Below are positions 3,894 through 49,783 of a stretch of 61,472 nucleotides of DNA, in pieces; position 1 is the first letter of the stretch, and every line of letters begins with the position of its first letter. A program made the translations under genes and the position numbers. The DNA comes from a virus (Duplodnaviria > Caudoviricetes): the IMG/VR virus record IMGVR_UViG_3300031623_000938, positions 1-61,472 of that record, one strand, 5' to 3'. A model generated the notes under the pieces. The model worked only from the letters and a program-made list of their open reading frames with translations. It was not told where the DNA came from and searched no databases.

Positions 3894-3970
3894 TGGTACT
3901 CCCGCTGGGACTCGAACCCAGAACCCTCTGTTTAGAAGACAGATGCTCTATCCAATTGAGCTACGAGAGC
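3894..3970 (-). tRNA. tRNA-Arg (anticodon TCT)
   Basis: GCTCTCGTAGCTCAATTGGATAGAGCATCTGT-CTTCTAA-ACAGAGGGTTCTGGGTTCGAGTCCCAGCGGGAGTACCA; cloverleaf, TTCGA T-loop, encoded CCA. Confidence 0.97.
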
Positions 3971-3972
3971 TA

Positions 3973-4422
3973 CTACTTCCCTTGGAAAAAGTTGTCGTAT
4001 TTGATGAAAACCTCTTCTCCTCTGGATATGTCAAACATGGCGTAAACTGAACCGTTAGCATCGAATCGGGCGTTTGGATTGTCAGAATGATTCATGTAAG
4101 CACTGATGTTTAAGGTATTTAGTGTTCGATACGGGATATACACAAAAGAGTCCTGACTCTTCGAGAAGAAATCGAGAACCATTGATTTGACCTCCTCATC
4201 TGCCACATCGAAAACTTTTTCAGGTACTTTAAAGAATTTGTCGTATCGAGAAGTCTCTGGGAAGAGATTAGTATTGGAGGCAACATCCCTAACGGCAAAA
4301 ACCCCCACGCCGTGAACTTCCGAAGGTTTTATTCTGCAATAAGTGCATTCTATTATTGCTTGTGCTATTCGAGCCTCTTCCTCGTGCTCTTCTTTAGAGT
4401 TGGCAGATTTGATTTTCTCCAT
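3973..4422 (-). CDS. SET-domain protein (putative lysine methyltransferase)
   Basis: SEVHGVGVFA, YMNHSDNPNA, ISRGEEVFIKY motifs. Confidence 0.9.
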   Translation of the reverse strand: MEKIKSANSKEEHEEEARIAQAIIECTYCRIKPSEVHGVGVFAVRDVASNTNLFPETSRYDKFFKVPEKVFDVADEEVKSMVLDFFSKSQDSFVYIPYRTLNTLNISAYMNHSDNPNARFDANGSVYAMFDISRGEEVFIKYDNFFQGK

Positions 4423-4681
4423 TTTTTACTATGATTACCTTAGCCCCTAAAAAATCCTTTATATCTAATTTTACTTCATCAGTCAAACGATCTGGAGCTT
4501 GAGCCATGATTAAGTTTATTTCCCCTAAAACTTTTGACCTCTCACATTTGCAGCATTTTCTGAAGTATTTGACCTTCGCAAACACCGCTTGAAGAAACTC
4601 AGAACTAGCAATCAGATCGGGGGAATCCTTTTCTATCTTGCCTAAAAATTCCCCAACGCTAATCACGAGTTCGTCATTCAT
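4394..4681 (-). CDS. hypothetical protein
   Basis: 95-aa ORF, CCKC motif, coupled to neighbours. Confidence 0.65.
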   Translation of the reverse strand: MNDELVISVGEFLGKIEKDSPDLIASSEFLQAVFAKVKYFRKCCKCERSKVLGEINLIMAQAPDRLTDEVKLDIKDFLGAKVIIVKNGENQICQL

Positions 4682-5080: not shown

Positions 5081-5731
5081 TCACCTTTTTACAACGATCA
5101 TTTGCAGGATTGGGTAGCCCTGCTTAAAAATTACTTCTTCTGCTGACTTGTGTTTGTCAACGGTGAACAATGGGTTAATCTGCTCACCGAAAGGATCATC
5201 TTCCCAATCCTTAAGCTTATCCCCTCTCTTAATTCCTGCTTTGTATGCCTCTCGCTTGTCTATCGAAAGTAATCCGCTCTGTATCCTGTAACCAACTCCC
5301 CCACGGAAATGGTAAGCTGGTTGGATAAACATAACATCCCATTTTTTAGAAGACTTTATCATCCAAGGGGTAACAAATTTAAAAACAGTCCCAAGCTCTC
5401 TTTGCTCGACAGGGAAGTCTTCCAAGAATCTGTCTGGGAAACTATCGACTAGGAAATGAGCACAAGCCACATCGAATGGAGCCCTGATTATGTAACCAGA
5501 ATGAATGATTTTATTTATACCGTGACATTTCCTTAATGGGTGGCCCTCCTTAAACCAAGGAGGAGTAATGTCTTTAGACAGAACAGGGGGAAACATTTTA
5601 TAGCATTCTACTAAATAGTTTACGCTTTCCTCTGTCGGTTTTATCTTGGCCTTCTCCAAGTAACTAGTTGCAAAACTTTCCAAGTCGTAAGACTGAAACT
5701 TAACATCACCAAAATCAACTTCTTCAATCAT
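5081..5731 (-). CDS. hypothetical protein, possible degenerate dUTPase-like fold (DUF6065-like)
   Basis: GYIIRAPFD, FKFVTPWMIKS, C-terminal FKQGYPILQMIVVKR. Confidence 0.6.
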   Translation of the reverse strand: MIEEVDFGDVKFQSYDLESFATSYLEKAKIKPTEESVNYLVECYKMFPPVLSKDITPPWFKEGHPLRKCHGINKIIHSGYIIRAPFDVACAHFLVDSFPDRFLEDFPVEQRELGTVFKFVTPWMIKSSKKWDVMFIQPAYHFRGGVGYRIQSGLLSIDKREAYKAGIKRGDKLKDWEDDPFGEQINPLFTVDKHKSAEEVIFKQGYPILQMIVVKR

Positions 5732-6201
5732 AAGCCTGTGGAGCCGAAGCCTCCGTCTTCCCTGCTGGATGAATCGAGGGAGTTAACTTCTTCCCAATTC
5801 GCATCGTAGCATTTTTCTATAATTAATTGCGCTATCCTATCTCCTTTTTGTACCTCGAATGCCAAGCGAGACCCGAAAAATTTACCGTAGACATTCTCAG
5901 GCTCAGGGATATTAAAATTTGCTAGAATTACGCCCACATCCCCCCTGTAAGAAGAGTCAATGACTCCACCCATCACCATTATTCCATTTTTGGCAGCGAG
6001 TCCACTGCGAGGAGCTATCCTGCCGTAATACCCCTCCGGTATCTCTACGGCAATACCCGTTCTAACAATCCTCCGGTACATGGGTTCTATCCTGAGCGTT
6101 TCAATGCTATACAAGTCGTACGCTGCATCACCAACTTTTGCCCTTGTTGGTTCTTCTGCTCCATCGATAAGCTTAACGTATTTTATATTAAGTAATTTCA
6201 A
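5728..6201 (-). CDS. dut: dUTP diphosphatase (trimeric)
   Basis: AAYDL, GRIAPRSGLA, GVIDSSYRG, GDRIAQL, REDGGFGSTG motifs. Confidence 0.97.
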   Translation of the reverse strand: MKLLNIKYVKLIDGAEEPTRAKVGDAAYDLYSIETLRIEPMYRRIVRTGIAVEIPEGYYGRIAPRSGLAAKNGIMVMGGVIDSSYRGDVGVILANFNIPEPENVYGKFFGSRLAFEVQKGDRIAQLIIEKCYDANWEEVNSLDSSSREDGGFGSTGL

Positions 6202-6724
6202 CTATCCTTTTCTCCCAATGTCTAGTTCGGCAGTTCTTAAGAAGTACCCAGTATAACCTTTCGGGTTCCGTCAGCAACTCTGGTGGAATCTCTTTGTCTA
6301 TGCAAGACTTTATAGGGGCCAGCTTCCCGATAGAGAAGGTGTTCTTATTAAAGACATCCTCCCTCGTCGTTTGACAGTCAAACATCCTGCAACCAAACGG
6401 AGAGTGGTCGTGAACCATGCAGTTCCCATCATTGTAGTTTACGCAAGCCCCATCATCGTCGTTTGACTTAGGTATTAAGACAGGAAGAAAGCTAGAGCAC
6501 TCGTTAAAATAAAAAGTCGTAGAAATAAGGTGGGATTTACCCCACTCTATCACTTCTTTTGAAGGAGCAAGGGAAGACAGTTGATCAAAGCCCGTTACTT
6601 TGCCGTATGCCTGTAAATCATCAGGGAGTAGATAGCTAGGACAATTTATGCAGTTCTGCTTGCATTGACCACAAGAACAAAAAGTCCTCTTAAATGGAAC
6701 AGAAGAACCATCATCTAGTAACAT
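6188..6724 (-). CDS. YkgJ-like cysteine-cluster (Zn/Fe-chelating) protein
   Basis: CSCGQCKQNC ... CVNYNDGNCMVHDHSPFGCRMFDC. Confidence 0.7.
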   Translation of the reverse strand: MLLDDGSSVPFKRTFCSCGQCKQNCINCPSYLLPDDLQAYGKVTGFDQLSSLAPSKEVIEWGKSHLISTTFYFNECSSFLPVLIPKSNDDDGACVNYNDGNCMVHDHSPFGCRMFDCQTTREDVFNKNTFSIGKLAPIKSCIDKEIPPELLTEPERLYWVLLKNCRTRHWEKRIVEIT

Positions 6725-7173
6725 ATCTGATCATACCCTTCCCTCCTAAAGTCAAAAATCAATTTTACCCCAAACTCTTCAGCTAAGCTCATGGAACTTT
6801 TATCTCTTTCATATACATCAGCGTAGATGACTTTCTTAATGCCATAGGAGGAGATTGTTTTCAAGCAGTCATTGCACGGAAGCAAGGTGACCGCAATAAG
6901 AGAGCACTCTCCGGGTCGCACATATCTTAATGCATTTATTTCCGCATGGATCACCCTCTTCCTTCTTTCGTCTCTATTAGACCAGTCTATCTCAACTTTA
7001 GGTGGTGGACCATTATACCCTAGCCCCCCAATACTGTTGTCGTGCCTTAAGGCACAAGCCCCAACCTTGATGTATGGGTCTTCGCTTCGACAGCGAGCCA
7101 CCTTCGCCAATTCTATTGCATATTGTTCCCAAGTTACCCTCATCTTCCCATCTCCTGTTCTCACCTGTATCAT
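6715..7173 (-). CDS. dCMP deaminase (ComEB family)
   Basis: RSEDP..KVGA, GYNG, HAEINAL, PCNDC zinc motifs. Confidence 0.93.
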   Translation of the reverse strand: MIQVRTGDGKMRVTWEQYAIELAKVARCRSEDPYIKVGACALRHDNSIGGLGYNGPPPKVEIDWSNRDERRKRVIHAEINALRYVRPGECSLIAVTLLPCNDCLKTISSYGIKKVIYADVYERDKSSMSLAEEFGVKLIFDFRREGYDQICY

Positions 7174-7213
7174 AAAAAAACACTTTGTGCAAAGGAAATC
7201 TAGAGGTTAATAT

Positions 7214-7639
7214 GTGAGCATGAATTTACTGGAGACATCTAACAAACTTTTTGAGTTCTTCTTGACGCGGGACTGCTTTGTGATAGATGAAAACTTAAAG
7301 GATATTGTCACAATTACTGACGACCCTGAAAGGGATAAGGCTTGCATTCTCGGTTCATTAAGGACACTCGAAAAAATTGAATGTGTTACAGAAGTGGAAA
7401 TGAATAACAAAAGTTATTGGTTCCTGAACAGACCAGCGGAGTCCCTAGAGCAAGAAGTAACCCTTCATGGCCCGACCTCTCAAATGATAGCTGATATCAT
7501 AAACAACTTCAGCGCGGTCATCGAAGATAAGACTGATGTATGTGATTCCAAGTCTATAGAAGAAAAAGACATTCGGAGCTTGATCTTTATTACGAACTAC
7601 TTTATTTCTCAGAGCAACGGCAACGCCGAAGAAGAATAA
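7214..7639 (+). CDS. hypothetical protein
   Basis: 141-aa acidic ORF, divergent from the dCMP deaminase gene. Confidence 0.7.
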   Translation: MSMNLLETSNKLFEFFLTRDCFVIDENLKDIVTITDDPERDKACILGSLRTLEKIECVTEVEMNNKSYWFLNRPAESLEQEVTLHGPTSQMIADIINNFSAVIEDKTDVCDSKSIEEKDIRSLIFITNYFISQSNGNAEEE

Positions 7640-8000
7640 AAGGTAAAATCCTTTTCATCCCGCTGAGAGAAAACAGTAGGGTTTCCCAAGGTGAGACAAC
7701 GACGAGGTGCTTTGCACTGTCAGGGCTTAGAGCATAAGTCCACAACCAAAGGGACTGCTCTGATGTGACACACATCAAAAAAAACTGGTGGATAATTCCC
7801 ACCGCATTACCCCAGCGTGATGAGGGTAGTCATCGTAAGCAGTTTTCAAGCACAGTTTCTGCGCCTATTGTAAGGTAGATGGCTTCAGTCTTGTACTGAT
7901 CTGTGTCTATCTGTGGTGTCCCGCCCACGTAAAAAACAGTACGGGCCTCGAAAGAAAGATAGATATTCAGATTCCCCCCCTTCTGGGGGGGTTCTATCTT
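7638..8000. ncRNA. candidate structured non-coding RNA or origin element
   Basis: Many hairpins, a multibranch junction and a possible pseudoknot in a ~360-nt gap between convergent genes. Confidence 0.5.
7956..8000. terminator. strong hairpin, possible bidirectional terminator
   Basis: AAGATAGA...CCCCCCC-TTCT-GGGGGGG-T-TCTATCTT between convergent genes. Confidence 0.55.
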
Positions 8001-8035
8001 AATTTCCTAAAAGAAAGTATTATATTCCTCTAAGA

Positions 8036-8707
8036 CTAAACGTACACTTTGCCAGACCATCTCTGTCTTAGCAAAAGAGGAAACCATCCTTTGATTATAT
8101 TAGACCACTCAAGGCTTTCTTCGGTCTTATACTTATCTATGAACTCTGAACTCACTGTTTCGGGGTGGACGTACCAATCTTCAAAAGGGTTTTCGCACCT
8201 AACATCTGAGAACATTCTTAAATACCCATTCCTCTCAAAGATTTTACGAGATACATCCCTCGTACATTCGAAGTTTCCGCAGCAGTATATATCGTGCTCA
8301 AAAGTCACCACCGAGAATATGTGATTACCCATTACCTCTCTTTCTAGTTTATCAATAGTTACTAATGTGGAGCCATTTGATGGCTCTAAGTCTAAAGACA
8401 GGTAGTCAATCACTGGTGGCAAATCTGAAATCTTGAAAACGGCTCCGTAATCTACCAACTGGGCATCTGATATAATATATTTTGACTTGGGTCTTTTAGT
8501 CTTATACCCTTCTTCATATCTGGAATCCATTTCCACCATTAAACCCCTCCAGCCGTATGAGTTCTCCAAAAGGTAAGTATTGTTTCCCTCAACGGCGTGG
8601 CACGAGCCTAGCTCCACGAATGTACCCTCTCTTTTCTCCCCAGTTGCCTTTAGAGCGAAAAGGTCTTGGCCAGCTTGACTATAAAACTCAAGTTCAGATT
8701 CGCTCAT
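8036..8707 (-). CDS. FkbM/Methyltransf_21 family SAM methyltransferase
   Basis: YSQAGQD, GTFVELG, NNTYLLE..GWRGLMVE, IDYLSLDLE. Confidence 0.85.
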   Translation of the reverse strand: MSESELEFYSQAGQDLFALKATGEKREGTFVELGSCHAVEGNNTYLLENSYGWRGLMVEMDSRYEEGYKTKRPKSKYIISDAQLVDYGAVFKISDLPPVIDYLSLDLEPSNGSTLVTIDKLEREVMGNHIFSVVTFEHDIYCCGNFECTRDVSRKIFERNGYLRMFSDVRCENPFEDWYVHPETVSSEFIDKYKTEESLEWSNIIKGWFPLLLRQRWSGKVYV

Positions 8708-8759
8708 GACAATGAAGAGTATACTGTTCAGAGCAAAATATAAAAAAGTTTTTTTATCT

Positions 8760-8793: not shown

Positions 8794-9444
8794 GTGGATA
8801 ATTGTCGGGTGATTGGGATTTCTGGAGTAGCGAAATCAGGAAAGGATCAATTCTTTAGGCTCCTCAAGCAAAAACTTGAGAAAGCTGGAGTTGAGACTCA
8901 CAGGTACGCCATAGCTGATAGACTAAAGGAGGAGCTAAGGAATTTCGTCGGGTGGTATTACGAATTTGACTTAATGTCATGCTCTCCAGAGCTAAAAGAA
9001 GACATGAGACCACTCATGGTTTTCCACGGGACTCACATGAGGAAAATAACAAAAGGCAGATACTGGATAGATTTCCTGTCTAAGCAAATAGAAAGAGACG
9101 AGCCTGAAGGTGTTGTGTGCATAACGGATGTTAGATTCGATCAGCATGATGTCGATGAAGTTGATTGGCTTAAGAATGAATTGGGAGGAAAACTCATTCA
9201 TATTTCCAGATACACGGAACTGAAAGACACCGGAGCATTAAATCATATCACAAGTGGCGTGGTATCTAATGCTAGAAGCTACGTGAGGCCAGCTAACGAA
9301 TTTGAAAAAGCGAACGACCCTAAGCTAAAAGAAAAAGCGGACTATAAAATAGAGTGGCCTACCGTGTACGGATCACTCGAAGATGTAGATCAGGAACTGT
9401 CGAAACATGTAGATGACTTTTGGGAATGGTTTACGAATGACTAA
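8794..9444 (+). CDS. deoxynucleoside monophosphate kinase-like P-loop kinase
   Basis: GISGVAKSGKD Walker A, ADRLKEE, ITDVRF. Confidence 0.8.
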   Translation: MDNCRVIGISGVAKSGKDQFFRLLKQKLEKAGVETHRYAIADRLKEELRNFVGWYYEFDLMSCSPELKEDMRPLMVFHGTHMRKITKGRYWIDFLSKQIERDEPEGVVCITDVRFDQHDVDEVDWLKNELGGKLIHISRYTELKDTGALNHITSGVVSNARSYVRPANEFEKANDPKLKEKADYKIEWPTVYGSLEDVDQELSKHVDDFWEWFTND

Positions 9445-9446
9445 GT

Positions 9447-9818
9447 ATGAGTTCACAGTCCAACAAGTGGGAAATCGGATTATGCATTCCTATTGTAGCC
9501 GTAAAGCCAACATTCATGGCGTATTCAAAAGACGGCGATATTTTTGATTACTCGCTGACACTAGTTAAGAAAAGTTTCTTTTTCGGCCACTACTCTTTTG
9601 CTGAATTAGCAATTAAGAATATAGTCACAGGAGAAGAGGAGAGGGATACCCGCTCGTTTACAAGAACGGAAAATAAAGAACTTAAGAACTACATGAAGAT
9701 GCCAAGGGAAATATTCCGTGGACATGAGATAGATGTCCTCTTGTTCGACGGTAAGAAGAAAATGCCTTGGTCATCATATAAAGGTTTATTAGCATTATGG
9801 AAACAAACGAACTCCTAG
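9447..9818 (+). CDS. hypothetical protein
   Basis: 123-aa ORF in operon context. Confidence 0.6.
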   Translation: MSSQSNKWEIGLCIPIVAVKPTFMAYSKDGDIFDYSLTLVKKSFFFGHYSFAELAIKNIVTGEEERDTRSFTRTENKELKNYMKMPREIFRGHEIDVLLFDGKKKMPWSSYKGLLALWKQTNS

Positions 9819-10426
9819 GGACAATACCTGATATTTTTTTAGTCGATAAGATTAAAGAAGGTGGGTGCGAAAGAAGCATTAAGGGGATCATCAAAAGGCA
9901 TACGCCTCTTTGCATGAAGATAATCAGAAGATACACCCCTGCTATGGTCGTGACTAATTCCTTCCATCCAGAAATGTATAAAGAGATGAACGTCTTAATA
10001 TATCAATCTGCGATTTCATTCAACCCAGATAAAAAAGTAAAGTTTTCTACTTGGCTTGGAAATCAGACAAGATACTTCTGCCTAAATATACTCAACAAGT
10101 CATCGAAAAGAATAAGACTTCTTATGGTGGACTGCGAAGACGTTGACGTAATAGCCTACAACGATGTGCAGCCAAGCTCTTTAGTCGATAGCGCAGATAT
10201 TCGAGATTACATATTTAATATTCTAGACCAGATGAAAGACGAAAGAATAAAGAAGGTATTTAAGATAAGATATTTCTCCTGCAACAGGAAGCTTACTCCT
10301 TGGGAAAAGATAGCAAAAGACTTGTGCGTGAGCACTCAGACAGCTATTAACCTTCATAACAGAGGCAAAGTAATCCTAAAGAAGAAGCTTTCGAGCAGAA
10401 ACATGAATCAGATGGACAAAATTTAG
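9797..10426 (+). CDS. RNA polymerase sigma-70 family factor
   Basis: Region 2 FNPDKKVKFSTW; region 4 HTH VFKIRYF..PWEKIAKDLCVSTQTAINLHNRG. Confidence 0.85.
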   Translation: METNELLGTIPDIFLVDKIKEGGCERSIKGIIKRHTPLCMKIIRRYTPAMVVTNSFHPEMYKEMNVLIYQSAISFNPDKKVKFSTWLGNQTRYFCLNILNKSSKRIRLLMVDCEDVDVIAYNDVQPSSLVDSADIRDYIFNILDQMKDERIKKVFKIRYFSCNRKLTPWEKIAKDLCVSTQTAINLHNRGKVILKKKLSSRNMNQMDKI

Positions 10427-10770: not shown

Positions 10771-11859
10771 ATGAGTGAGATTGCTGTTCACTTACCCGTC
10801 AATGGGGTATCGTTTGGTCAAGTTTCTGTAGGGCTTCTCAGGGAGATGCACAAGAGGGAAACCTCTCCGTGCATTTTCCCTGTGAACCCAACGAGTATCG
10901 ATCTTAGTACTCAGTGCGTTGAGACTGATTTCAAGAAGTGGCTAGAGGGCAACATTAACAAGTCGCTTGGGACGCATAAAAGGTCCGATCCAATATTTAA
11001 GCTCTGGCATCTGAATGGCTCCCTCGAAAGCTACAGCGACAAGCAAGTTCTCTTCACTTTTTATGAGCTTGACCAACCGACTCAGCAAGAAATCAACATT
11101 GCCAGAAATCAACATAGGGTCATAGTAAGCTCCGAGTACTCGAAGAGTATACTCGAAAACAGTGGCCTAAATAATGTTTCTTACGTCCCTTTGTTCTTCG
11201 ATAAAGAGTCCTTTAAGAAGAAGGACAAGAACTATTTTACTGACGACAGGGTTACTTTTAATCTTACCGGAAAGTTCGAGAAAAGAAAGCACCACCAAAA
11301 AATTATTCGCGCTTGGGCTAAGAAGTTCGGCAATAATAAAAGGTTTTCTTTGCAATGCGCTACGTACAACTCTTTCCTTAAGGAAGAGGATAACCAAAAC
11401 ATTATCAACTCCATACTGGAGGGGAAAGCCTACGATAACATAAGTTTTCTTGGGTACATGTCTAAGAATGATTTGTACAACGACTTTCTTAATTCTGGTG
11501 ATGTTATCCTCGCTTGCAGCGGAGGCGAAGGATGGGGATTACCGGAGTTTCACTCGGTAGCGATGGGGAAACATGCAGTTACATTAAATGCTCATGCGTA
11601 CAAAGGCTGGGCAGATGAAAGCAATTCGATTTTTATAAATCCCACAGGTAAAACCGAAGTCTACGATGGGATGTTTTTCCTAAAGGGACAACCATACAAT
11701 CAAGGGTCTATCTTCGACTTCGATGATGAGGAATTTATTACTGCTTGTGAGCAAGTGATTGAAAGAGTAGGGGAGAGCAGGGTTAACAAAGCTGGACTCC
11801 TACTCCAAGAAAAATTCACTGTCGAAAAGACTCTTGATGGAATACTGGAGCAGTTTTGA
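10771..11859 (+). CDS. glycosyltransferase (GT-B, GT4-like)
   Basis: GKFEKRKH, SGGEGWGLPEFHSVAMG. Confidence 0.85.
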   Translation: MSEIAVHLPVNGVSFGQVSVGLLREMHKRETSPCIFPVNPTSIDLSTQCVETDFKKWLEGNINKSLGTHKRSDPIFKLWHLNGSLESYSDKQVLFTFYELDQPTQQEINIARNQHRVIVSSEYSKSILENSGLNNVSYVPLFFDKESFKKKDKNYFTDDRVTFNLTGKFEKRKHHQKIIRAWAKKFGNNKRFSLQCATYNSFLKEEDNQNIINSILEGKAYDNISFLGYMSKNDLYNDFLNSGDVILACSGGEGWGLPEFHSVAMGKHAVTLNAHAYKGWADESNSIFINPTGKTEVYDGMFFLKGQPYNQGSIFDFDDEEFITACEQVIERVGESRVNKAGLLLQEKFTVEKTLDGILEQF

Positions 11860-18125: not shown

Positions 18126-18151
18126 TTTGTGTCTCTAGCTGCTTTTGAATC

Positions 18152-18157
18152 GTGTAA
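18152..18157 (+). promoter_or_regulatory. GTGTAA putative phage promoter element
   Basis: 11 nt before ATG 18169. Confidence 0.5.
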
Positions 18158-18168
18158 TCTAACTTAGA

Positions 18169-18456
18169 ATGGACTACCAGATACTTGTAAATATTTCTGT
18201 AGGAATCGTCACCCTAATGGGCGGATGGGTTTTCAAAATGATTTTAGGTCACATCAATGAGATCAAATCAGACCATAACGACCTGATAGCTAAACACCAT
18301 GCAGACATGGAAAAAATGACAACCAAATATATCGATTTAGCCCTTCAACTTCCGAAAGAATACGTTAGTAAGGAAGATTTCAAACAGTTCACAGAGCGTA
18401 TGAACGACAGATTTGATCGTCTTGATGAAAAAATAGATGACCTAGCTAAGAAATAG
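18169..18456 (+). CDS. single-TM coiled-coil protein (holin-like)
   Basis: N-terminal TM, C-terminal YVSKEDFKQFTERMNDRFDRLDEKID coiled coil. Confidence 0.6.
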   Translation: MDYQILVNISVGIVTLMGGWVFKMILGHINEIKSDHNDLIAKHHADMEKMTTKYIDLALQLPKEYVSKEDFKQFTERMNDRFDRLDEKIDDLAKK

Positions 18457-18469
18457 CTATAAAAAAAAC

Positions 18470-18498
18470 TTGACGATTTTTTAACTCCCCTGTATATT
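18470..18498 (+). promoter_or_regulatory. sigma70 promoter with upstream A-tract
   Basis: A8 tract, then TTGACG-17-TATATT. Confidence 0.75.
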
Positions 18499-18545
18499 CC
18501 TATCTGAACCCCTTGGTTAAACCCAACAGAAAAGGAATACATATA

Positions 18546-23000: not shown

Positions 23001-23879
23001 ATGATTACGAACTCTAAGATTGGGCACTATGGACGGCTAGGGAACCAAATGTTCCAATATAGCCTTCTGTACTCCGTAGGCAAAAAGAATAACTACGAGG
23101 TGGTACTTCCTATCGATAACCAAAAGATGGTGGACGGTAGGTACAACCCTGTCATTAATTCTAATGATAGGTATGGTCTGGATTTATTTAAGTGCTTCGA
23201 CGTTAACGCGCTTTGTAAAAGTAACTCGGAAATACAAGACGAGATAAAGCACAATTACAAAGAGGAGTACGCTGGATATAATCCCAATGTATTTGACGTT
23301 GAAGACGGCACTGATTTCGAGGGGTATTTCCAATACTGGAAATTCTTCGAAGATTACTTTGAGGATATTAAAAAAGAATTTGAGTTCAGCGATGAAGTCA
23401 AATCTAAGGGCGTGGAGCTAATTGATTCAACTGGAATAGACCAGTTGAAAGCAACAGTATCTGTTCACGTTCGTCGCGGAGATGGACTAATGGATGATGG
23501 TCAATTCCAAGTTTTTCTTGGCGCGGAGTATTACTATGTAGGGCTTAAGATTCTCGAATCTCAAGGAGTGAAGAATCCTCAAGTTGTTGTTTTCTCTGAC
23601 GATATTAAATGGTGCAAGGAAAATCTACATTTCAAAGACATGGTTTTTGTTGACTCGTCTTCCGTGGACGATGGTCTTATGTGTCCACACTATATCGACC
23701 TTTTCCTCATGACGCTGTGCCAGCATAACATAATGGCAAATAGCACATATAGCTGGTGGGGTTCTTTCTTGAATAAAAACGTAGGGTCTAAGGTTATCGT
23801 ACCTAAGGAATGGTGGGGATGGAGAAATAAGTCCAGCAGCGAAAAGTACATTAGGCTTAGTCATTGGATGTCAATATGA
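23001..23879 (+). CDS. GT11 alpha-1,2-fucosyltransferase-like
   Basis: GRLGNQMFQY, GYFQ, VHVRRGD, FSDDIKWC, ANSTYSWWG. Confidence 0.93.
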   Translation: MITNSKIGHYGRLGNQMFQYSLLYSVGKKNNYEVVLPIDNQKMVDGRYNPVINSNDRYGLDLFKCFDVNALCKSNSEIQDEIKHNYKEEYAGYNPNVFDVEDGTDFEGYFQYWKFFEDYFEDIKKEFEFSDEVKSKGVELIDSTGIDQLKATVSVHVRRGDGLMDDGQFQVFLGAEYYYVGLKILESQGVKNPQVVVFSDDIKWCKENLHFKDMVFVDSSSVDDGLMCPHYIDLFLMTLCQHNIMANSTYSWWGSFLNKNVGSKVIVPKEWWGWRNKSSSEKYIRLSHWMSI

Positions 23880-25144
23880 AAGACCTTTTCGAAAGAAATA
23901 GATTCAGATGCAATTGGAACGTTTACCCAAGAGGGGTACTCCATTTAGGTGATAAAACAGAATCCGACGAAACGACCTACAAGAACCACTGGGCAAGGAA
24001 GATTAATTGGGTAAGTACCGAAGTCATTAATGAGGTAACTGAGTGGAGAGAAGATGATGACTACCAGTACAACCTTATCTGCTTCAGGAATCTAGAGATG
24101 AACGCAGCATACGCGAAGAGACTATCTTCAATGCTGGATACTGTAGAATTTTTTGTGGTAATCTCGGATAGACTTGAAGACTCGGACTACGAGACTCTTT
24201 GCAGCTTTTTAGAAAAGAAAAACTACAGAAAGCTTTGTGAGAACAGAGAAGATGAGGAAGGCTCTGTTCTACTTTTCACAAGAAGAGTAACGCCCGAATA
24301 CAAAGTTAACATTTTTGATAACATATTTGCCCATTCTCGTGCTTCTAGCGGGAATTACCCAACGCATTTTGAGTGGGTAAGGGATGAGATGGAGTGGGAT
24401 GGGGTGACCTTGTTCACTGATGTCCATATGTTAACTCGCCCTAACTTACCTCTAGAGGTGAAGTCTAAGCTCAAAGTCGGTTGGTTGCTGGAGTCGAAGG
24501 CTGTCATTAGGTATGACGCTAATTACATTTGGCAGATGAGGTCTTTATACGATTATATTTTTACCCACGATAGGGTTCTTATCGATGCTGATCCTGATAA
24601 ATTTTTATTTGTCACCCCCGGTTCCCAACGCTGCATACACCCGAAAGACTGCAAAGTCTATAGCAAGGAAAAGCTCGTCTCTATTGCTGTTTCTCTCAAG
24701 AAGGACACGGACGGCCATAGCCTTAGACACGCTATCGTTTCACAACTAGGCGACAAAATAACGGACGTATGGGGACATGCGTACAACGAATTTATACCAA
24801 GGCTTGTCCCGTATAAAGACTACATGTTTATAATCGTAGTTGAGAACCACAAGTATGACCATTACTGGTCAGAAAAACTCTTAGAGCCGTTTTGGACAGG
24901 CACTGTTCCTATCTATAAGGGCTGCGCTTCTTTCCCTGATTGGTTTGACCCCAATGGAGTCATTACTTTCGATACGATAGAAGAATTAAGTGACATCTTA
25001 GAAAATTTAAGCAGCGAACTGTACTACAGTAAGATGGAAAGCATTCAGGAAAATTACAGGAGAAGCTTGAAGTATTTAGGAGGAGCAGAGGATTTTATGT
25101 TCGAAACTTACCCAAACATATTTAGCAAGGAAAACACACCATAA
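23876..25144 (+). CDS. GT10 fucosyltransferase-like protein with extra N-terminal domain
   Basis: YMFIIVVEN..DHYWSEKL....GTVPIYKG motif; ATG 23876 overlaps the upstream TGA. Confidence 0.8.
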   Translation: MKDLFERNRFRCNWNVYPRGVLHLGDKTESDETTYKNHWARKINWVSTEVINEVTEWREDDDYQYNLICFRNLEMNAAYAKRLSSMLDTVEFFVVISDRLEDSDYETLCSFLEKKNYRKLCENREDEEGSVLLFTRRVTPEYKVNIFDNIFAHSRASSGNYPTHFEWVRDEMEWDGVTLFTDVHMLTRPNLPLEVKSKLKVGWLLESKAVIRYDANYIWQMRSLYDYIFTHDRVLIDADPDKFLFVTPGSQRCIHPKDCKVYSKEKLVSIAVSLKKDTDGHSLRHAIVSQLGDKITDVWGHAYNEFIPRLVPYKDYMFIIVVENHKYDHYWSEKLLEPFWTGTVPIYKGCASFPDWFDPNGVITFDTIEELSDILENLSSELYYSKMESIQENYRRSLKYLGGAEDFMFETYPNIFSKENTP

Positions 25145-26724
25145 TGCAAGTAGCCGGAATATACTCTAGTCATGATTGTTCCTTCGCCGTTCTAGACGAA
25201 GGAAAAGTAATCGCTCACCTCGAACTAGAGAGGTTTGCGAGGGTAAAAGAGCCTACGGAGGATGGCTTTAAGTTCTACGAGAACTATTGGATGGGTCCAA
25301 AGACGATCAACCACTTTACTGAAGTATGTGACACTTGGAAACAGCACTACGCAGAGAACAGAAAAAATATGTTCAAAATATGTGAAGAGGGAGGAGGCTA
25401 CCACGAAGCTGGGCATCATCAAGCCCACGCAGCCAACGCCTTTTTCTCAAGTAACTTTGACGACGCATTAATTATAACCATTGATGGCGGAGGGATGGAC
25501 AGGAGAGACGACGGTTCCGAAATGATAACAGCCTTTACTGTGTGGGAGGGTAAGGGGAACAAAATAGAGAAAGTTGAGATACTAGAAGAACGAATGTCTA
25601 ACGTGGGTTTCACTTGGACTAATGCTACTAAATATATTTTTGGCCTATCTACTGGATACCCGAAAGGTGCTCAAATGGGAACGGTAATGGCTATGGCTGC
25701 ATTCGGTGACCCTAAATATTTAGATAGGTTTGTTGAGATTGTAAGCAACACGGAGTTGGGTGTTAAGAATCCAAGTTGCATGGTTCCATTTGCTCACATC
25801 GTTGGAGAGTCAGAGCAAGGAAAATTTGACGTTGCTGCCTCGCTACAGTTGGCGACTGAAGTGGTGATGAAAGAATTAATAGGTAAATACGTGAGCAAAA
25901 CGAGCAGCAGAAACCTTTGCCTATCTGGCGGGGTTGTCTTGAATTCCTCAATGACAGGCAAGATGTTTGATTGGTACAAAGGGAAAATTGACAACATATA
26001 TGTTTGCCCTGTCCCTTATGACTCTGGATTGGCAATTGGTTCAGCCCAGTACTACTGGCATCATGTGCTAGGGAACGAGAGAGTGAAGTGGTCAGACAAC
26101 GCTTCTCCTTACTTGGGCTACGTTTATCAAGAGAATGTAATAATCAACGAACTCCTCAAATTTCAAGACGAGGTTCAATGGGAAAAATCTTCCGACGATG
26201 ATGTGCTAGATAAACTAGCAAACCAAAATATCATCTCGGTTTATGGTGGAGGGTCCGAATCCGGTAGGAGGGCCTTGGGTAACAGAAGTATTCTTGCTGA
26301 CCCAAGGTCTCCCGACATGAAGGCTTTAATCAATGAAAAGGTGAAACACCGTCAATGGTTTAGGCCATTCGCTCCGAGCATACTTAGGGAAGATGTGGGG
26401 GATTGGTTCGAAAAGGATATAGATAGTCCGTACATGTCTTTTTGTGTGAAATTCAAAGAGGAAATGAAGGAGAAAGTTCCTGCTGTCCTCCACGAAGACG
26501 GGACAGCAAGACTACAGACCGTCACAGAAAATGACAACAGATGGTACTACAATTTCATAAAGAAATGGAAAAAGAAAAGTGGCGTACCTATTGTTCTCAA
26601 CACAAGCTTCAATGATACCGAGCCAATAGTTGAAGTTCCTGAACACGCTATTAAGTGTTTTCTGAAAACGAATATAGATTACTTATATTTCTTTGACTAC
26701 AACCTCCTTGTTAGGAAAAAGTGA
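25144..26724 (+). CDS. carbamoyltransferase (NodU/CmcH/TobZ family)
   Basis: SHDCS, ELERF.RVK, HHQAHAA, DGGG, GGVVLN, RALGNRSILADP, RPFAP, NTSFN. Confidence 0.95.
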   Translation: MQVAGIYSSHDCSFAVLDEGKVIAHLELERFARVKEPTEDGFKFYENYWMGPKTINHFTEVCDTWKQHYAENRKNMFKICEEGGGYHEAGHHQAHAANAFFSSNFDDALIITIDGGGMDRRDDGSEMITAFTVWEGKGNKIEKVEILEERMSNVGFTWTNATKYIFGLSTGYPKGAQMGTVMAMAAFGDPKYLDRFVEIVSNTELGVKNPSCMVPFAHIVGESEQGKFDVAASLQLATEVVMKELIGKYVSKTSSRNLCLSGGVVLNSSMTGKMFDWYKGKIDNIYVCPVPYDSGLAIGSAQYYWHHVLGNERVKWSDNASPYLGYVYQENVIINELLKFQDEVQWEKSSDDDVLDKLANQNIISVYGGGSESGRRALGNRSILADPRSPDMKALINEKVKHRQWFRPFAPSILREDVGDWFEKDIDSPYMSFCVKFKEEMKEKVPAVLHEDGTARLQTVTENDNRWYYNFIKKWKKKSGVPIVLNTSFNDTEPIVEVPEHAIKCFLKTNIDYLYFFDYNLLVRKK

Positions 26725-29595: not shown

Positions 29596-30858
29596 ATGAA
29601 GAAACTATCATTAATAGGGCTAGGGAAACTTGGGCTTCCACTTGCAACCGTATTCGCGAGTAAGGAAATTTACACCATAGGCATTGATGTTGATTCCTCT
29701 AAAATAGATGGACTTAACAATAATAGGTTGCCTTTCCACGAGACAGATTTGGAAGACCTCTTTTCTTCGAGCAGAGACCATCTTCATTTTACTGAGAATT
29801 TTAAGGACGCCGTAAACGAAACAGACATTAGTGTTATACTTGTTAACACGCCCTCAGATAAAGAGAGCAAGGGCTTTTCTAATGCTTACATTAAGTCCTC
29901 TTTAACTAGCCTTTGCACGGAGCTAAGGGAAAGCAACAAGGATTATCACCTCATTGTTATTAGTAGCACCGTCATGCCAACCACTTGCAAAGAAGTTATT
30001 CTACCTCTGATCGAAGAAGTGTCCGGTAGAAAACTAAACGAGGGATTCGGACTTTGCTATATACCTGATTTGGTTGCCTTGGGCTCTATTATTAGAGACT
30101 TCAAGAACCCTGACTTATTAATCGTAGGCGAAAGCAGTAAACGTGCTGGCGATATGGCATTGGAATACTATGGTGACATCATAGACAACGAAGCACCAAT
30201 CCACAGGATGTCGGTGATAGACGCTGAAATAACGAAGGTCAGTCTCAATGCCTACATAACCATGAAAATAAGCTTCGCTAATTTCATTGGGAATATTTGT
30301 GACAAGCTAGAGGATTCGCATTCTGGTAACGTTACTTCTGCCTTGGGTAAAGATAGAAGAATTTCTCCTTATTACATAAAACCGGGGCTCGCCTTTGGTG
30401 GTACGTGCTTCCCTAGGGACACTTGGGCCTTCGAAGAGTTCGCACGAAAAGTAGGGCTCGACGCAGTTCACGTTAAGGCAGCGGATGAGATAAACCAGAT
30501 GCAACATAGTATTTTGTACGAAAAGACAACCAAGCTGAATAGGAGCAAGGTCGCCATACTTGGACTTGGGTTTAAAGCTAACACGCCAGTAGTAGTAGAA
30601 TCACCCGCGATTATACTAGCGGAGAGGCTTGCTGACAATGGATACACTGTCAATGTCTGCGATTCCCTCGCGCTCGAAGAAGCTAAGTTGGCCCTCGGTC
30701 AGAAGGCTAATTATTTTACAAGCATAGACAAGTGCTTATCTGCATCAGAGTGCTGCGTAATAGCAACCCCCTTCCTTGGATTTAGGGAAGTATCGGAAGT
30801 AGTCGGGGAAGAATACCCAATATTAGATTGCTGGAACATTCTAGAGTCAAAAACATAA
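29596..30858 (+). CDS. UDP-glucose/GDP-mannose dehydrogenase family
   Basis: GLGKLGLP, VNTP, SSTVMP, FGGTCFPRD, GLGFK. Confidence 0.93.
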   Translation: MKKLSLIGLGKLGLPLATVFASKEIYTIGIDVDSSKIDGLNNNRLPFHETDLEDLFSSSRDHLHFTENFKDAVNETDISVILVNTPSDKESKGFSNAYIKSSLTSLCTELRESNKDYHLIVISSTVMPTTCKEVILPLIEEVSGRKLNEGFGLCYIPDLVALGSIIRDFKNPDLLIVGESSKRAGDMALEYYGDIIDNEAPIHRMSVIDAEITKVSLNAYITMKISFANFIGNICDKLEDSHSGNVTSALGKDRRISPYYIKPGLAFGGTCFPRDTWAFEEFARKVGLDAVHVKAADEINQMQHSILYEKTTKLNRSKVAILGLGFKANTPVVVESPAIILAERLADNGYTVNVCDSLALEEAKLALGQKANYFTSIDKCLSASECCVIATPFLGFREVSEVVGEEYPILDCWNILESKT

Positions 30859-41578: not shown

Positions 41579-41854
41579 ATGGCCTCATTAGATCATGTTT
41601 TTGACTTTGCTGAAAAGTTATCGAAAGATAATATAAGCTACTTTGTCGTTACCGTAAGAAAAGGTTTCGAGGAGGATAAGGCTGATTTGTTTTTTGATAT
41701 TAAGGACGACGATACGTTGCGTTCCATGCAATCAGTCTTCACAACAATAGCAAAAGAAATGGAGGAAAGCGATGACATCGAGCACTTCTACGAGAAAAAG
41801 AAAAGAAAAAAAACAGATAGAGACGAAGATGACGGTCAGCAGTTTCTTTTCTAA
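41579..41854 (+). CDS. hypothetical protein
   Basis: 91-aa acidic ORF preceded by a CTGTAT variant of the promoter element. Confidence 0.65.
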   Translation: MASLDHVFDFAEKLSKDNISYFVVTVRKGFEEDKADLFFDIKDDDTLRSMQSVFTTIAKEMEESDDIEHFYEKKKRKKTDRDEDDGQQFLF

Positions 41855-44447
41855 CATAGTTGACTACGATCTCAATTTGCATGGTGTTAGACTTCCGACT
41901 TTTGAAATCCAAAATTCAGAAAAACACTACGCGAAGGTAGACGAGGATTGTACTAACCTAGATTTTCTAAAGGCTTTATGCCGACAAGGTTTTCGCAAAT
42001 TGGGCCTCAAGAAAGACTCTGAAGAATTTAAGAGCTACGGGGATAGAGCCAATAGAGAACTCAAAACCTTAGAAGAACTTGGGTTCATTGATTACGTACT
42101 TCTAGTTTGGAAAGTCATTAATTTTTGCGAAAAAGAGGGGATACCAACTGGACCGGGCAGGGGAAGCGCAGCGGGAAGTTTAGTTCTGTTTTTGATAGGC
42201 GTTACGAAGATAGATTCAGTTAAGTACGGATTATTTTTTGAGAGGTTCGTCTCTAAAATACGAGCGAAGAAAAAAGAAGTGGATGGAGTTACGTACTTAG
42301 ATGGTTCTTTGATGTGTGATGTTGATCTCGATATTTGCTATTACAAAAGAGCTAAAGTAATAGAATTTCTTGAGAAAGAATTCGTAGGCAAGACTTCAAA
42401 GATTTTAACCCTATCTACTCTTAGTGGCAAAATTTTAATTAAAGACTGTGGGAAAACAATAGCTGGGAAAAACGAGACCGAGATGAATCAAATCTCTAAT
42501 CTAATCCCTAAAGTATATGGCCAAGTCCAAGACTTGAGCGTAGCTTATGACGAAGTTGAAGAATTAAGGGAATGGTGCGATGAGAATAAAGACGTTTACG
42601 ATATCTCGTTAAAGCTTAGGGGTCTTATTCGTAACAAGGGCGTACATGCTTCAGGTATGCTACTGTCTCATGGCGAACTAGAGCTATCCTGCCCAGTGGA
42701 ATTGACCTCTGATAAAAGCATAGTATCTGGGTTCGACATGAACTGGGCATCTTTACTTAATGTTAAGTTGGATTTGCTTGGTCTTAGGAGCGTCACTGTT
42801 GTAGATGACGTATGCAGTATGGTCGGAATCAAGATGGACGACATTGATGTATCCGATCCCATCATATATCAAAATCTATATGACTTAAGAACGCCTCACG
42901 GGTTATTTCAAATAGAGGCAGACACCAACTTTAGGGTTTGCCAGAAGGTTAAGCCCAAAAACGTTGAAGAGCTTTCTGCTGTTCTGGCTCTTGCTCGCCC
43001 CGGAGCATTAGCTTTTGTCGATCAGTACGCCAATTATACGAACAATGGAACCTACGATGTAATTCACCCCTTCTTCGATGACATCTTGTTAACGACAGGA
43101 GGAGTTTGTCTGTACCAAGAACAGATGATGCAGATGGCTCACAAGATTGGGTTCAGCCTTGATGAAGCTGAAATGCTGAGACGAATCGTCGGTAAGAAAA
43201 AAGTCTCAGAGGTCAGGAAGTGGAAGAAGAAAATTAAAGACAAGGTAATTCAGAATAATCTCGATCCTAAAATTGGTAAAATTCTTTGGAAAGTACTAGA
43301 GGACTCGGCCAACTACTCATTTAATAAGTCGCACTCTCTTGCTTACGCAACCCTCTCCGCGATGACCATTTTCTTGAAGTTCAAATATCCAAAGGAGTTT
43401 TTCTTGGCTCTTTTGAAAATGACTAGGTTCGAACCGGACCCCATAGCTGAAATTTCAAAAATTCATAAAGAACTATATGACTTTAACGTAGAGCTATTAC
43501 CTCCACACTTGGTTAAATCCGAACTGAACTTCTCAATCGAGGAAGATAATATTCGTTTTGGGCTGTTGTCTGTTAAGGGGATATCAGACAAATCCATCGA
43601 AAAGATAGTGAATTTTAAGAATAAATATTCTAACAAATTTGAAATTTTCGAAGCAGCAGAAGAGGCGAAAATACCAATAGGAATTCTTTCCTCGTTAATA
43701 CAGGCTGGGGCATTAGAGGGATTCAAGCAATCCAGAAGTCAGGTGGTTCTTGAGGCTCAGCTATGGAAAATCTTAACCACGAGAGAGAAAAGGTTCGTTG
43801 CTGCGATGGGCAAAGAAAACGATTACGACCTCCCATCTATACTCAGGAAGTTGACGACCTTCAAAGACGAAAATAATAAGGTTGTGATTAAGGAGTCAAG
43901 AAGGAACACGATCAGAAGGAAGTACACCCCGTACCTAAAAATATACAAGCAGAACAGTAAGAATGAAAAATTCGCAAATTGGTATTACGAGAGAACCTAC
44001 TTGGGATATACCCACGACGTAACGCTAAGAGAAATTTTCATAAACAAACAACCGAAGCTTGAAGAATTGAGGACCATTAGAGACTTGCCTGTGGATTTCA
44101 ACGTTTGTTTTATCGGGACTGTCTTGGAGCACTTCAAAGGAATCTCGAAGAAAGGGAACCAATATTTAAGACTTCAAGTTCAGGATAACACTGGGGTTGT
44201 AACTGTCCTTATGTTTGAAAGACAGATGGGAAGCTGCGAGGAGATTAACGGTGGCAAGCTTCCCTCTAAGGGAAACATCGTGATAGTGAGGGGAGTGAAA
44301 AAAGAAGACGCTATTTTTGCTAACGTAATAGGCATAGAAGATCAGAGCGTGTATACAAAGCTTTCCCAAATACCTAATGACATCAAAAATACTTCTGATG
44401 CAGAGATAGATTCCATGATTCTAGAAATAGAAGGAAACAAAATATAA
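41829..44447 (+). CDS. dnaE: DNA polymerase III alpha catalytic subunit (lacks PHP domain)
   Basis: GPGRGSAAGSLV, FERF, DVDLD, HASG, KLDLLGL, YQEQ, YSFNKSH, C-terminal OB fold. Confidence 0.95.
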   Translation: MTVSSFFSNIVDYDLNLHGVRLPTFEIQNSEKHYAKVDEDCTNLDFLKALCRQGFRKLGLKKDSEEFKSYGDRANRELKTLEELGFIDYVLLVWKVINFCEKEGIPTGPGRGSAAGSLVLFLIGVTKIDSVKYGLFFERFVSKIRAKKKEVDGVTYLDGSLMCDVDLDICYYKRAKVIEFLEKEFVGKTSKILTLSTLSGKILIKDCGKTIAGKNETEMNQISNLIPKVYGQVQDLSVAYDEVEELREWCDENKDVYDISLKLRGLIRNKGVHASGMLLSHGELELSCPVELTSDKSIVSGFDMNWASLLNVKLDLLGLRSVTVVDDVCSMVGIKMDDIDVSDPIIYQNLYDLRTPHGLFQIEADTNFRVCQKVKPKNVEELSAVLALARPGALAFVDQYANYTNNGTYDVIHPFFDDILLTTGGVCLYQEQMMQMAHKIGFSLDEAEMLRRIVGKKKVSEVRKWKKKIKDKVIQNNLDPKIGKILWKVLEDSANYSFNKSHSLAYATLSAMTIFLKFKYPKEFFLALLKMTRFEPDPIAEISKIHKELYDFNVELLPPHLVKSELNFSIEEDNIRFGLLSVKGISDKSIEKIVNFKNKYSNKFEIFEAAEEAKIPIGILSSLIQAGALEGFKQSRSQVVLEAQLWKILTTREKRFVAAMGKENDYDLPSILRKLTTFKDENNKVVIKESRRNTIRRKYTPYLKIYKQNSKNEKFANWYYERTYLGYTHDVTLREIFINKQPKLEELRTIRDLPVDFNVCFIGTVLEHFKGISKKGNQYLRLQVQDNTGVVTVLMFERQMGSCEEINGGKLPSKGNIVIVRGVKKEDAIFANVIGIEDQSVYTKLSQIPNDIKNTSDAEIDSMILEIEGNKI

Positions 44448-49063: not shown

Positions 49064-49783
49064 ATGTCCGACATGGAATTCAACTTCGAAATCAAACCGA
49101 TCACAAGAGACGAGAATGGTCTAGTAAACAGTGGTCATGTTGATTATTCATTTAAAGAAGACGGGAGCATTAGCTGGCGTGACTTAATTGATTCAAAGTA
49201 CCTCGTGCCAAAAGACAAAGCTAAAGGCACTGACGTTAGCGATCTTCAAGACAGGGACTTACTGATCCTGCTGAACGGTATAAAGGAACTAGCTCAAATT
49301 CGTGGCTATAATTATGTCCAATACAATGTTGTTACAGCGAACCCAGAATACGTGATGGCATCATGCGAAATTGAGTGGATTCCGAATTACGAAACAGAGG
49401 GCAGGACTATCAAATTTCAAGCTCTTGCTGATGCGAGCTTGGACAACACTGATGGCTTTACAAGGTATTACCTAGCAGCGATAGCGGAAAATAGGGCATT
49501 CGTTCGTTGTGTTAGAAATTTTCTAAAGATTAACATCGTTGGCAAAGAGGAGATAGGAGCAGCAGTATCAACCCAGCCTATTATAGTTGATCAAACCGAC
49601 CCATGTTATCTTCTTGAAAAAATAATGCTAGACAAGAAGGTTACCTTTTCAATGATTAAAACAAAGATGATGGAGGAGAAGGTTAAAAACGCTGGTGATT
49701 TTGAGAACATTAAGGACATTCCTAAGATAAAGGCGTTCGAGCTTATAGAACGAATAAAGAAAGTTAAACAATCGTCCGCCTAG
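49064..49783 (+). CDS. hypothetical protein, possible Rad52/Sak-like annealing protein
   Basis: AIAENRAFVRCVR resembles the AETRA..RA.R helix; TTGACT-18-CATTAT upstream of ATG 49064. Confidence 0.6.
   Translation: MSDMEFNFEIKPITRDENGLVNSGHVDYSFKEDGSISWRDLIDSKYLVPKDKAKGTDVSDLQDRDLLILLNGIKELAQIRGYNYVQYNVVTANPEYVMASCEIEWIPNYETEGRTIKFQALADASLDNTDGFTRYYLAAIAENRAFVRCVRNFLKINIVGKEEIGAAVSTQPIIVDQTDPCYLLEKIMLDKKVTFSMIKTKMMEEKVKNAGDFENIKDIPKIKAFELIERIKKVKQSSA

Follow-up and report, generated by a model that had tools for sequence, protein, structure and literature searches.

A predicted structured non-coding RNA gene in a lineage of uncultured marine phages

Structure of the element at 7638-8000

The DNA analysed here, which we call the window, is a 61,472-nucleotide (nt) stretch of a phage record (IMG/VR IMGVR_UViG_3300031623_000938), part of a phage genome with compact genes. 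Between an open reading frame (ORF) at 7220-7639 on the plus strand and another at 8036-8707 on the minus strand lies a gap that holds the subject of this work, an element at 7638-8000. Comparison with its relatives indicates that this element encodes a structured, non-coding RNA, about 360 nt long, which is read on the plus strand and belongs to an uncatalogued family. The original prediction, made from the letters alone, had described a densely structured non-coding element with a possible H-type pseudoknot in the largest gap of the window. The gap between the ORF ends at 7639 and 8036 is real but not the largest, as the gap that contains the gene for transfer-messenger RNA (tmRNA) is longer, the only one in the window that is. 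The stretch 18126-18512, which appears as a gap of 387 nt when ORFs of at least 100 amino acids (aa) are listed, was rejected as a further case: it contains a 95-aa ORF (18169-18456, plus strand), which is conserved across four loci and varies there chiefly at the third position of codons.

Coding potential is absent from the element, with 7-9 stops in each plus-strand frame and 97 of 748 gap runs being multiples of three; antisense ORFs of 64-76 aa were judged spurious because their positions vary from copy to copy. The stretch 7638-8000 folds better than shuffled sequence: the plus strand reaches -120.5 kcal/mol compared with -100.4 ± 5.2 kcal/mol for 100 shuffles, none of which was as good (z -3.83). 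For the minus strand the same comparison gave a z of -2.64.

Compensating changes among relatives carry the case for an RNA. The structure that we counted was drawn by hand, with 55 pairs in 14 helices, on an alignment of 38 sequences, the copies described further below. Its cells are paired in 92.8% of cases, compared with 81.3 ± 0.4% in shuffles (none of 500 as high) and 39-52% when the partners were slid by 1-3 columns. Both sides change in 36 of the pairs, compared with 24.4 ± 2.2 in shuffles (again none of 500) and 15-24 after sliding, and the covariation score is 0.417 against 0.210 in shuffles and at most 0.129 after sliding. A separate alignment of the 5′ domain, with 37 pairs, is 81.2% paired compared with 71.3% in shuffles and at most 53.5% after sliding, and in both alignments none of the 500 shuffles reached any of five measures. 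These comparisons indicate a structured RNA whose helices, about twelve of them together with the pseudoknot at 7723-7760 (pseudoknot A), have been kept by compensating changes beyond what the controls give. All the motifs of the original prediction were located where it had placed them, and most of its helices draw support from covariation across the 38 sequences. The parts of the element and the other features of the window are collected in Table 1.

Table 1. Positions of the parts of the element, its flanking sequences and other genes of the window
Feature	Position	Strand	Remarks
Weak promoter-like site	7580-7608	+	TTGATC-17-TATTTC; inside the end of the upstream gene, not at the family promoter position
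H1	7638-7655	+	5′ hairpin, AAAAGG/CCTTTT (7638-7643/7650-7655); 73-82% paired by column
H2	7659-7681	+	bulged hairpin CCCGCUG/CAGUAGGG; conserved GAGAG-A-rich loop
Long-range helix	7685-7753	+	CCC 7685-7687 with GGG 7751-7753; encloses H3 and the stem of pseudoknot A
H3	7695-7721	+	variable hairpin; in the window a longer arm GACA..UGUC containing GTGC/GCAC (7707-7710/7714-7717)
Pseudoknot A	7723-7760	+	stem GGGCUUA/UAAGUCC (DNA GGGCTTA/TAAGTCC), 7723-7729/7735-7741; loop GAGCA 7730-7734 with UGCUC (DNA TGCTC) 7756-7760
H4	7761-7777	+	hairpin UGAUGUG/CACAUCA (DNA TGATGTG/CACATCA), 7761-7767/7771-7777; both sides change in 5 of 5 pairs
A-rich linker	7777-7786	+	A-run then CU; invariant or nearly invariant columns
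H5	7786-7804	+	hairpin with conserved 5-7-nt loop; GGTGG/CCACC at 7787-7791/7799-7803
H6	7805-7822	+	small hairpin, 7805-7809/7818-7822; nearly invariant C-rich 8-nt loop
H7	7828-7884	+	7828-7834/7878-7884; closes a three-way junction containing H8 and H9
H8	7839-7842/7859-7862	+	nearly invariant 16-nt loop; 7839/7862 is UA in 24 and GC in 11
H9	7863-7865/7874-7876	+	
H10	7885-7899	+	variable hairpin UCAGU/ACUGA (DNA TCAGT/ACTGA), 7885-7889/7895-7899; both sides change in 3 of 3 pairs
H11	7899-7972	+	7899-7912 (anti-X1) with 7957-7972 (3′ part of X); encloses pseudoknot B
Pseudoknot B	7913-7945	+	stem GUGG/CCAC 7913-7916/7925-7928; loop CCCG 7920-7923 with CGGG 7942-7945
X	7951-7968	+	purine-rich, lineage-specific stretch before the terminator
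Intrinsic terminator	7974-8000	+	C7/UUCU/G7 and U-rich tail; C7/G7 at 7974-7980/7985-7991, flanks AAGATAGA/TCTATCTT; terminator scan 7973-7991 plus tail
anti-X2	7993-8000	+	U-rich terminator tail; alternative partner of X
X′	8010-8027	+	direct repeat of X past the terminator; 14 of 18 bases as in X
tRNA-Arg gene	3894-3970	-	anticodon TCT
dUTPase gene	5728-6201	-	
dCMP deaminase gene	6715-7173	-	
Upstream gene	7220-7639	+	acidic winged-helix protein, 139 aa
ORF 3′ of the element	8036-8707	-	stops at 8036
dNMP kinase gene	8794-9444	+	
Sigma-like protein gene	9797-10426	+	
tmRNA gene	49799-50203	+	Rfam, 141.7 bits; also found by ARAGORN

Support is spread along the length of the element. In relatives the GG/CC of H1 is swapped for CGG/CCG, GAG/CUC or GAU/AUC, and the hairpin is missing altogether in three copies (L006, L112 and L119), in which the promoter adjoins H2. 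H2 has seven pairs, five of them changing on both sides, and is 92.5% paired (94.4% in the 5′-domain alignment). The latter alignment also covers the long-range helix (five pairs, three changing on both sides, 91.6% paired) and H3, which is 74-86% paired with changes on both sides in three of four pairs; all six pairs of the stem of pseudoknot A change on both sides in it. Further on, H5 and H7 each have seven pairs of which six change on both sides, are 97.7% and 98.5% paired, respectively, and provide the top of an alignment-wide G-test. H6 is 94.7% paired with little variation, the window copy showing a swap from A-U to U-A relative to the consensus. Two helices of the original prediction, both in the central junction, had to be redrawn. 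Its closing helix AAAACTG/CAGTTTT, which used the A-run at 7781-7787, gave way to the pairing of CAG 7840-7842 with CUG 7859-7861, which covaries. Its ATTACCC/GGGTAGT has a 3′ half that overlaps the strongly covarying H7, and the hairpin 7805-7809/7818-7822 fits the family instead.

The H-type pseudoknot of the original prediction, our pseudoknot A, is maintained in the relatives. Its loop pairing forms at least four contiguous Watson-Crick pairs in 33 of the 38 copies, through 19 compensating sequence versions; of 1208 cross-lineage combinations, only 23% reach this number of pairs. Copies L081, L086, L089 and L117 fail this test; there, inspection by eye suggested a shifted hairpin that may still pair with a downstream strand. 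Pseudoknot B, in the 3′ part, has weaker support than pseudoknot A. Both sides change in three of the four pairs of its stem and in two of the three pairs of its loop pairing, which is 91.2% paired by column. Taken sequence by sequence, at least three pairs form in 37 of 38 copies and at least four in 23 of 38, compared with 29% of cross-lineage combinations for the latter, a slight advantage over the controls.

Strand, ends and the repeat around the terminator

Among the 55 pairs, G-U cells (286) far exceed A-C cells (47), which places the RNA on the plus strand, where the original prediction had put it, and the promoter and terminator of the relatives point the same way. A TTGAC[ACT] motif lies upstream in 36 of the 38 copies, and in 34 an nAnnnT hexamer comes 16-18 nt after it. 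The hexamer ends 24-31 nt before H2 in 31 copies, which would place the start of the RNA at H1, and 2 nt before H2 in three copies without H1. The -35 box sits inside the last codons of whichever gene precedes. A sigma-70-type promoter at a fixed distance is hence found for the family (34 of 38 copies) and not for the window copy: the window copy and one relative (L007) lack the TTGAC[ACT] family promoter, and the former is therefore probably read through from the upstream gene. At the other end, a G+C-rich hairpin followed by a U-rich tail closes every one of the 38 copies. On the minus strand, H5 (7787-7803) followed by the complement of the A-run (7777-7786) also scores as intrinsic-terminator-like; both segments are almost invariant in the family.

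The RNA libraries searched gave one contig on the element. It is 222 nt long (7563-7786, depth about 2), comes from one small metatranscriptome library and spans the gene end into the element, which fits read-through from the upstream gene. Such libraries can contain DNA, and their contigs reveal neither strand nor ends. Three metatranscriptome runs contained small shares of the region; depths were about 2-6 and no RNA-run contig covered 7787-8107, which is uninformative as to absence.

The terminator is embraced by a repeat. In all 38 copies a stretch of 20-30 nt, X, recurs in direct orientation 52-75 base pairs (bp) further on, beyond the terminator, as X′. The local alignment score between X and X′ of the same phage has a mean of 14.6 and a minimum of 11, compared with 8.1 ± 1.7 for cross-lineage combinations and 7.7 ± 1.6 for shuffled sequence, and the exact core common to X and X′ is a purine-rich 6-12-mer. 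The pattern shared by the two has only two perfect matches in the 61-kb window, which led us to reject X as a dispersed promoter. The next-best site, with two mismatches, is at 49756-49773, just upstream of the tmRNA gene.

Within the RNA, X can pair in two ways. The duplex of H11 in the window amounts to -14.6 kcal/mol, and among 25 lineage representatives the pairing of X with its own anti-X1 has a mean of -9.64 compared with -7.38 across lineages, with none of 2000 random pairings as good. The alternative pairing with anti-X2, the terminator tail, gave -7.95 for own and -6.50 for cross-lineage partners, again with none of 2000 random pairings as good. Pairing of X′ with anti-X1 or anti-X2 was discarded, being no better than cross-lineage (345 and 1754 of 2000 random pairings as good), as was a role of X′ as a -10 or -35 box, for which inspection by eye found nothing consistent on either strand. 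If the terminator works, X′ lies outside the RNA, and the fact that it is conserved would then indicate a role in the DNA itself or in read-through transcripts. The repeat may be a sign that the RNA acts on the locus that encodes it; to our knowledge, an RNA segment repeated in the DNA just outside its own gene has no described counterpart.

Relatives and gene setting

Relatives were sought with 7600-8040 of the window as query in 69 loci fetched via the dCMP deaminase and one fetched via the 223-aa downstream protein. By nhmmer, 8 of these 70 loci carry a homologous stretch over nearly its full length (E 1.6e-29 to 9.6e-13). A conserved-core pattern then gave 18 viral loci, 17 of which were confirmed by a profile search (L076 was not), and a longer pattern gave 38 metagenome loci, every one of them confirmed. 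A shorter pattern had 54 matches in 185,579 bacterial and archaeal species, and the only true copy among them (L144) is identical to a viral contig (L071) and sits on a 44-kb contig binned with a metagenome-assembled genome of Pseudomonadales; this evidence is too weak for us to name a host from it. Removal of identical and truncated copies left 42 that are distinct and full-length, on viral and metagenome contigs of marine origin; 38 of them were aligned, and four (L072, L093, L104 and L109) were dropped as at least 98% identical to L074. Each viral or metagenome locus has a single copy of the RNA.

No match was found among 50,697 records of isolated phages by blastn in its distant mode, with either 7200-8750 of the window or the L074 copy as query. 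A peptide-pattern scan with the 223-aa downstream protein led to one locus, in which the element is absent, and scans with the 139-aa protein and the dNMP kinase led to none. Two loci (L003 and L004) have deaminases 68% identical to that of the window and carry no RNA within 5 kb. The stretch 7200-8700 is partly or wholly present in 17 DNA runs, all except one (X13) labelled as marine or seawater metagenomes; with eight possible source runs left out, five runs from five studies contain at least 60% of its sampled words. The DnaE-type DNA polymerase of the window (41772-44447, plus strand), whose best-covering annotated matches carry the label polymerase III alpha, shares only 26-34% identity with the polymerases of isolated phages, which indicates a lineage without a cultured relative in the collection searched.

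The RNA unit always lies 3′ of a gene on the same strand, though the gene differs. In 35 of 51 loci, as in the window, the unit comes directly after the gene for a protein of about 140 aa; in the remaining 16 the two are 0.8-2.5 kb apart, and in the seven of these whose neighbours were examined the unit follows the dUTPase gene. The genes downstream are unrelated and often convergent (sulfotransferase, methyltransferase, glycosyltransferase, dNMP kinase, unknown). A riboswitch or leader would be expected at a fixed place upstream of a single type of gene and on its strand; the element shows no such pattern, and in the window the next gene is convergent.

The gene for the protein of about 140 aa was present in 53 fetched loci and the RNA in 51 of them, a co-occurrence that may reflect shared descent. 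One exception (L065) is truncated at the boundary of the locus, and the other (L032) has an unrelated, ORF-free spacer of about 430 nt, for which neither homology with the RNA family nor a hit in Rfam nor a fold signal (z +1.35) was found. In this locus, at 4055-4525 on the minus strand, a promoter-like site follows the winged-helix gene and a 13-nt direct repeat recurs about 190 nt apart. The 139-aa protein of the window is predicted to form a winged helix with two further helices and an acidic tail, at a predicted local distance difference test score (pLDDT) of 89; Foldseek gave weak, generic winged-helix matches (best E 0.013), and the family matched no Pfam or PHROG family. As 18 of 18 homologues are acidic (isoelectric point (pI) 4.2-4.75), we do not propose the protein as an RNA- or DNA-binding partner.

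Known RNA families and possible functions

The claim of the original prediction that the element matches no known RNA family agrees with our searches. Over the whole window at gathering scores, Rfam reported only the tmRNA and one tRNA; for 7400-8300 at E up to 10, Rfam 15 gave only three chance-level hits, centred on the terminator or on the upstream gene; and for five relatives at E up to 5 no family recurred. The models for RNase P RNA (RF00010, RF00011 and related) had no hit at E up to 10 on 7400-8300 or up to 5 on the five relatives, and those for GOLLD, ROOL, HEARO, OLE and raiA had none on the window or the five relatives. The tmRNA model (RF00023) and ARAGORN found only 49799-50203 and nothing at 7638-8000. 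A group I intron (RF00028) was rejected: the element is flanked by a complete plus-strand ORF and the end of a minus-strand ORF, and the model gave no hit.

By its kind the RNA, which from these searches would represent an uncatalogued family of one uncultured marine phage lineage, resembles GOLLD and ROOL. These RNAs have a size of roughly 600-800 nt and are often found in phages and prophages. Like them, the element would be a large, pseudoknotted and conserved stand-alone RNA gene of phages that came to light through conservation in metagenomes. It differs from them in that their Rfam models do not match it, in its shorter length (about 360 nt), in having X and X′ around the terminator, and in its position away from tRNA genes (the tRNA of the window is 3.7 kb off). 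The phi29 pRNA is another phage-encoded structured RNA, made from an early promoter, in which a covarying loop-loop pairing builds the functional assembly. The element shares with it the phage origin and covarying loop-loop pairing, but there is no Rfam match, the element is about twice as long, and the phage type is unrelated, with a DnaE-type polymerase. Multimers have been reported for RNAs of the GOLLD and ROOL type (bioRxiv 10.1101/2024.12.08.627333), and the covarying loop-loop pairings that we assign within one molecule could equally be intermolecular. In the literature we found no description of this RNA, including the accessible part of Fremin et al. 2023 (PMC10690425), whose candidate list was not compared. 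According to that part, the study, which like ours drew on IMG/VR intergenic regions and took covariation as evidence, reports 8,495 novel candidate structured RNAs with an average of 67 nt; fragments of the present RNA may already be among them, unnamed.

We favour the view that the element encodes a free-standing phage RNA that acts in trans, and consider this probably correct. The RNA would be transcribed early by the host polymerase and accumulate as a separate molecule. The loops of H2, H5, H6 and H8 would form, with the A-rich linker and the junction, a fixed three-dimensional core that could bind a conserved partner or catalyse a reaction, and X, a single-stranded, purine-rich tract that varies between lineages, could serve in sequence-specific recognition. 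A bolder reading, to which we give little weight, takes the element for a new RNA-guided or catalytic device in which a conserved scaffold with two pseudoknots presents X as a guide with its twin X′ past the terminator. Such an RNA would act on its own locus, for instance by R-loop priming of phage replication or by a directed cut or recombination.

Several points weigh against a free-standing RNA. By column, only 60% pairing is seen for the loop of pseudoknot A, the 5′ and 3′ domains are imperfectly aligned in parts, and the shuffle control ignores relatedness and was applied to a structure drawn from the same sequences. The copy in the window is among those that lack the family promoter, and the single RNA-library contig on the element could be DNA carry-over. 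A purely RNA-level model leaves the conservation of X′, beyond the terminator, unexplained. Finally, neither the conserved loops nor X have an antisense match in the 61-kb window, and no partner, ligand or target was found.

The original prediction had named a replication origin as its alternative, and the repeat lends itself to an origin in which the RNA is a primer or activator and X hybridises to X′ DNA, opening the duplex or priming synthesis, a reading that seems unlikely to us. RNA II at ColE1-type origins and the origin transcripts of T4 and T7 are loose parallels; as with these, there would be a structured transcript of several hundred nt, a host-type promoter and a segment able to hybridise to nearby DNA, and in the window the element lies near the strand switch. 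It sits there at the change from leftward to rightward genes and at the minimum of the cumulative GC skew, adjoined by nucleotide-metabolism genes and with replication genes in the same window, and the lineage-specific direct DNA repeats with their purine-rich core, which flank a G+C-rich hairpin in 38 of 38 copies, need an explanation at the DNA level or by read-through. The skew minimum, near 6-8 kb, coincides with the gene-orientation switch and follows gene orientation, however, so it is not independent evidence for an origin, and the dUTPase-linked units are found 0.8-2.5 kb from the strand switch, within a run of same-strand genes; the position varies among relatives, which sets the unit apart from ColE1 RNA II and similar origin transcripts. 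A strong terminator separates the RNA from the matching DNA, there are two repeats only, neither a conserved AT-rich unwinding region nor an antisense regulator was found at the element, and in the window a gene end comes directly after X′. The adjoining winged-helix protein is also acidic, unlike an iteron-binding initiator. We regard it as rather improbable that the element works in cis, either as a long 3′ untranslated region serving to protect or terminate the upstream message, or as a leader or attenuator that governs read-through into the genes downstream, by a switch between X:anti-X1 and X:anti-X2. It always stands at the 3′ end of a same-strand gene, the window copy has no promoter of its own and its RNA-library contig bridges gene end and element, and X can pair with only one of its two lineage-specific partners at a time, one of these pairings lengthening the terminator stem. 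Against this, a near-consensus promoter of their own, positioned for a start at H1 or H2, is present in 34 of 38 copies, the upstream gene varies with the arrangement and the downstream genes are unrelated or convergent, and some 360 nt containing two pseudoknots and numerous invariant bases in the loops go well beyond what a terminator or stabiliser requires.

Two further readings concern the nature of the RNA itself. A selfish or mobile module, bearing a ribozyme or guided by its RNA, in which X directs the module to X′ and so keeps or spreads it, would accord with the two genomic positions in related phages, with the module's own promoter and terminator, with the lack of the RNA in some close relatives (L003, L004) and with an RNA stretch identical to an adjacent DNA site. 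Linked nucleases, recombinases or reverse transcriptases are absent from the flanks examined, each locus carries a single copy and no ribozyme family matches, and we think this highly improbable. We would be most surprised if the element belonged, as a far-diverged member that the models miss, to a known family (RNase P RNA, tmRNA, group I intron, 6S or one of the known large phage RNAs). Its size and pseudoknot content are typical of such RNAs, and a phage that encodes a tmRNA and a tRNA invests in translation-related RNAs; the likeness to tmRNA extends to a length of 350-400 nt and several H-type pseudoknots. But the Rfam hits on the element stay at chance level, the five relatives share no recurring family, the element is not inside a split gene, and its 5′ and 3′ ends are unpaired, unlike those of tmRNA and RNase P RNA, with a local hairpin and a terminator where tmRNA has a tRNA-like end pairing, and with no conserved tag frame.

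Whichever its function, the candidate RNA is clearly defined, with about twelve helices and two pseudoknots besides a promoter and a terminator; comparison among relatives supports it strongly, and it is confined to a lineage of ocean phages without a cultured relative. Large, intricately folded non-coding RNAs are rare, and new classes of them have tended to reveal mechanisms, as ribozymes, riboswitches, tmRNA and guide RNAs did. The element is thus a concrete object for structure probing, cryo-electron microscopy and activity tests.

Elsewhere the window encodes a ribonucleotide reductase, a DnaB-like helicase, tail fibres and several sugar-modifying enzymes in addition to the DNA polymerase. 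Glycosyltransferases, a Nol-like carbamoyltransferase and a UDP-glucose dehydrogenase are found at 10771-11859, 23864-26724, 29596-30858 and 45911-47866; this cluster of sugar enzymes, beside the dCMP deaminase, dUTPase and dNMP kinase, may point to modified DNA or to surface sugars in the phage lineage. The tag that ARAGORN predicts for the tmRNA has 31 residues and is unusually long, and one locus (L120) carries a related copy of the tmRNA (nhmmer 1.2e-87). Genes similar to the tRNA-Arg gene occur in several loci related to the window.

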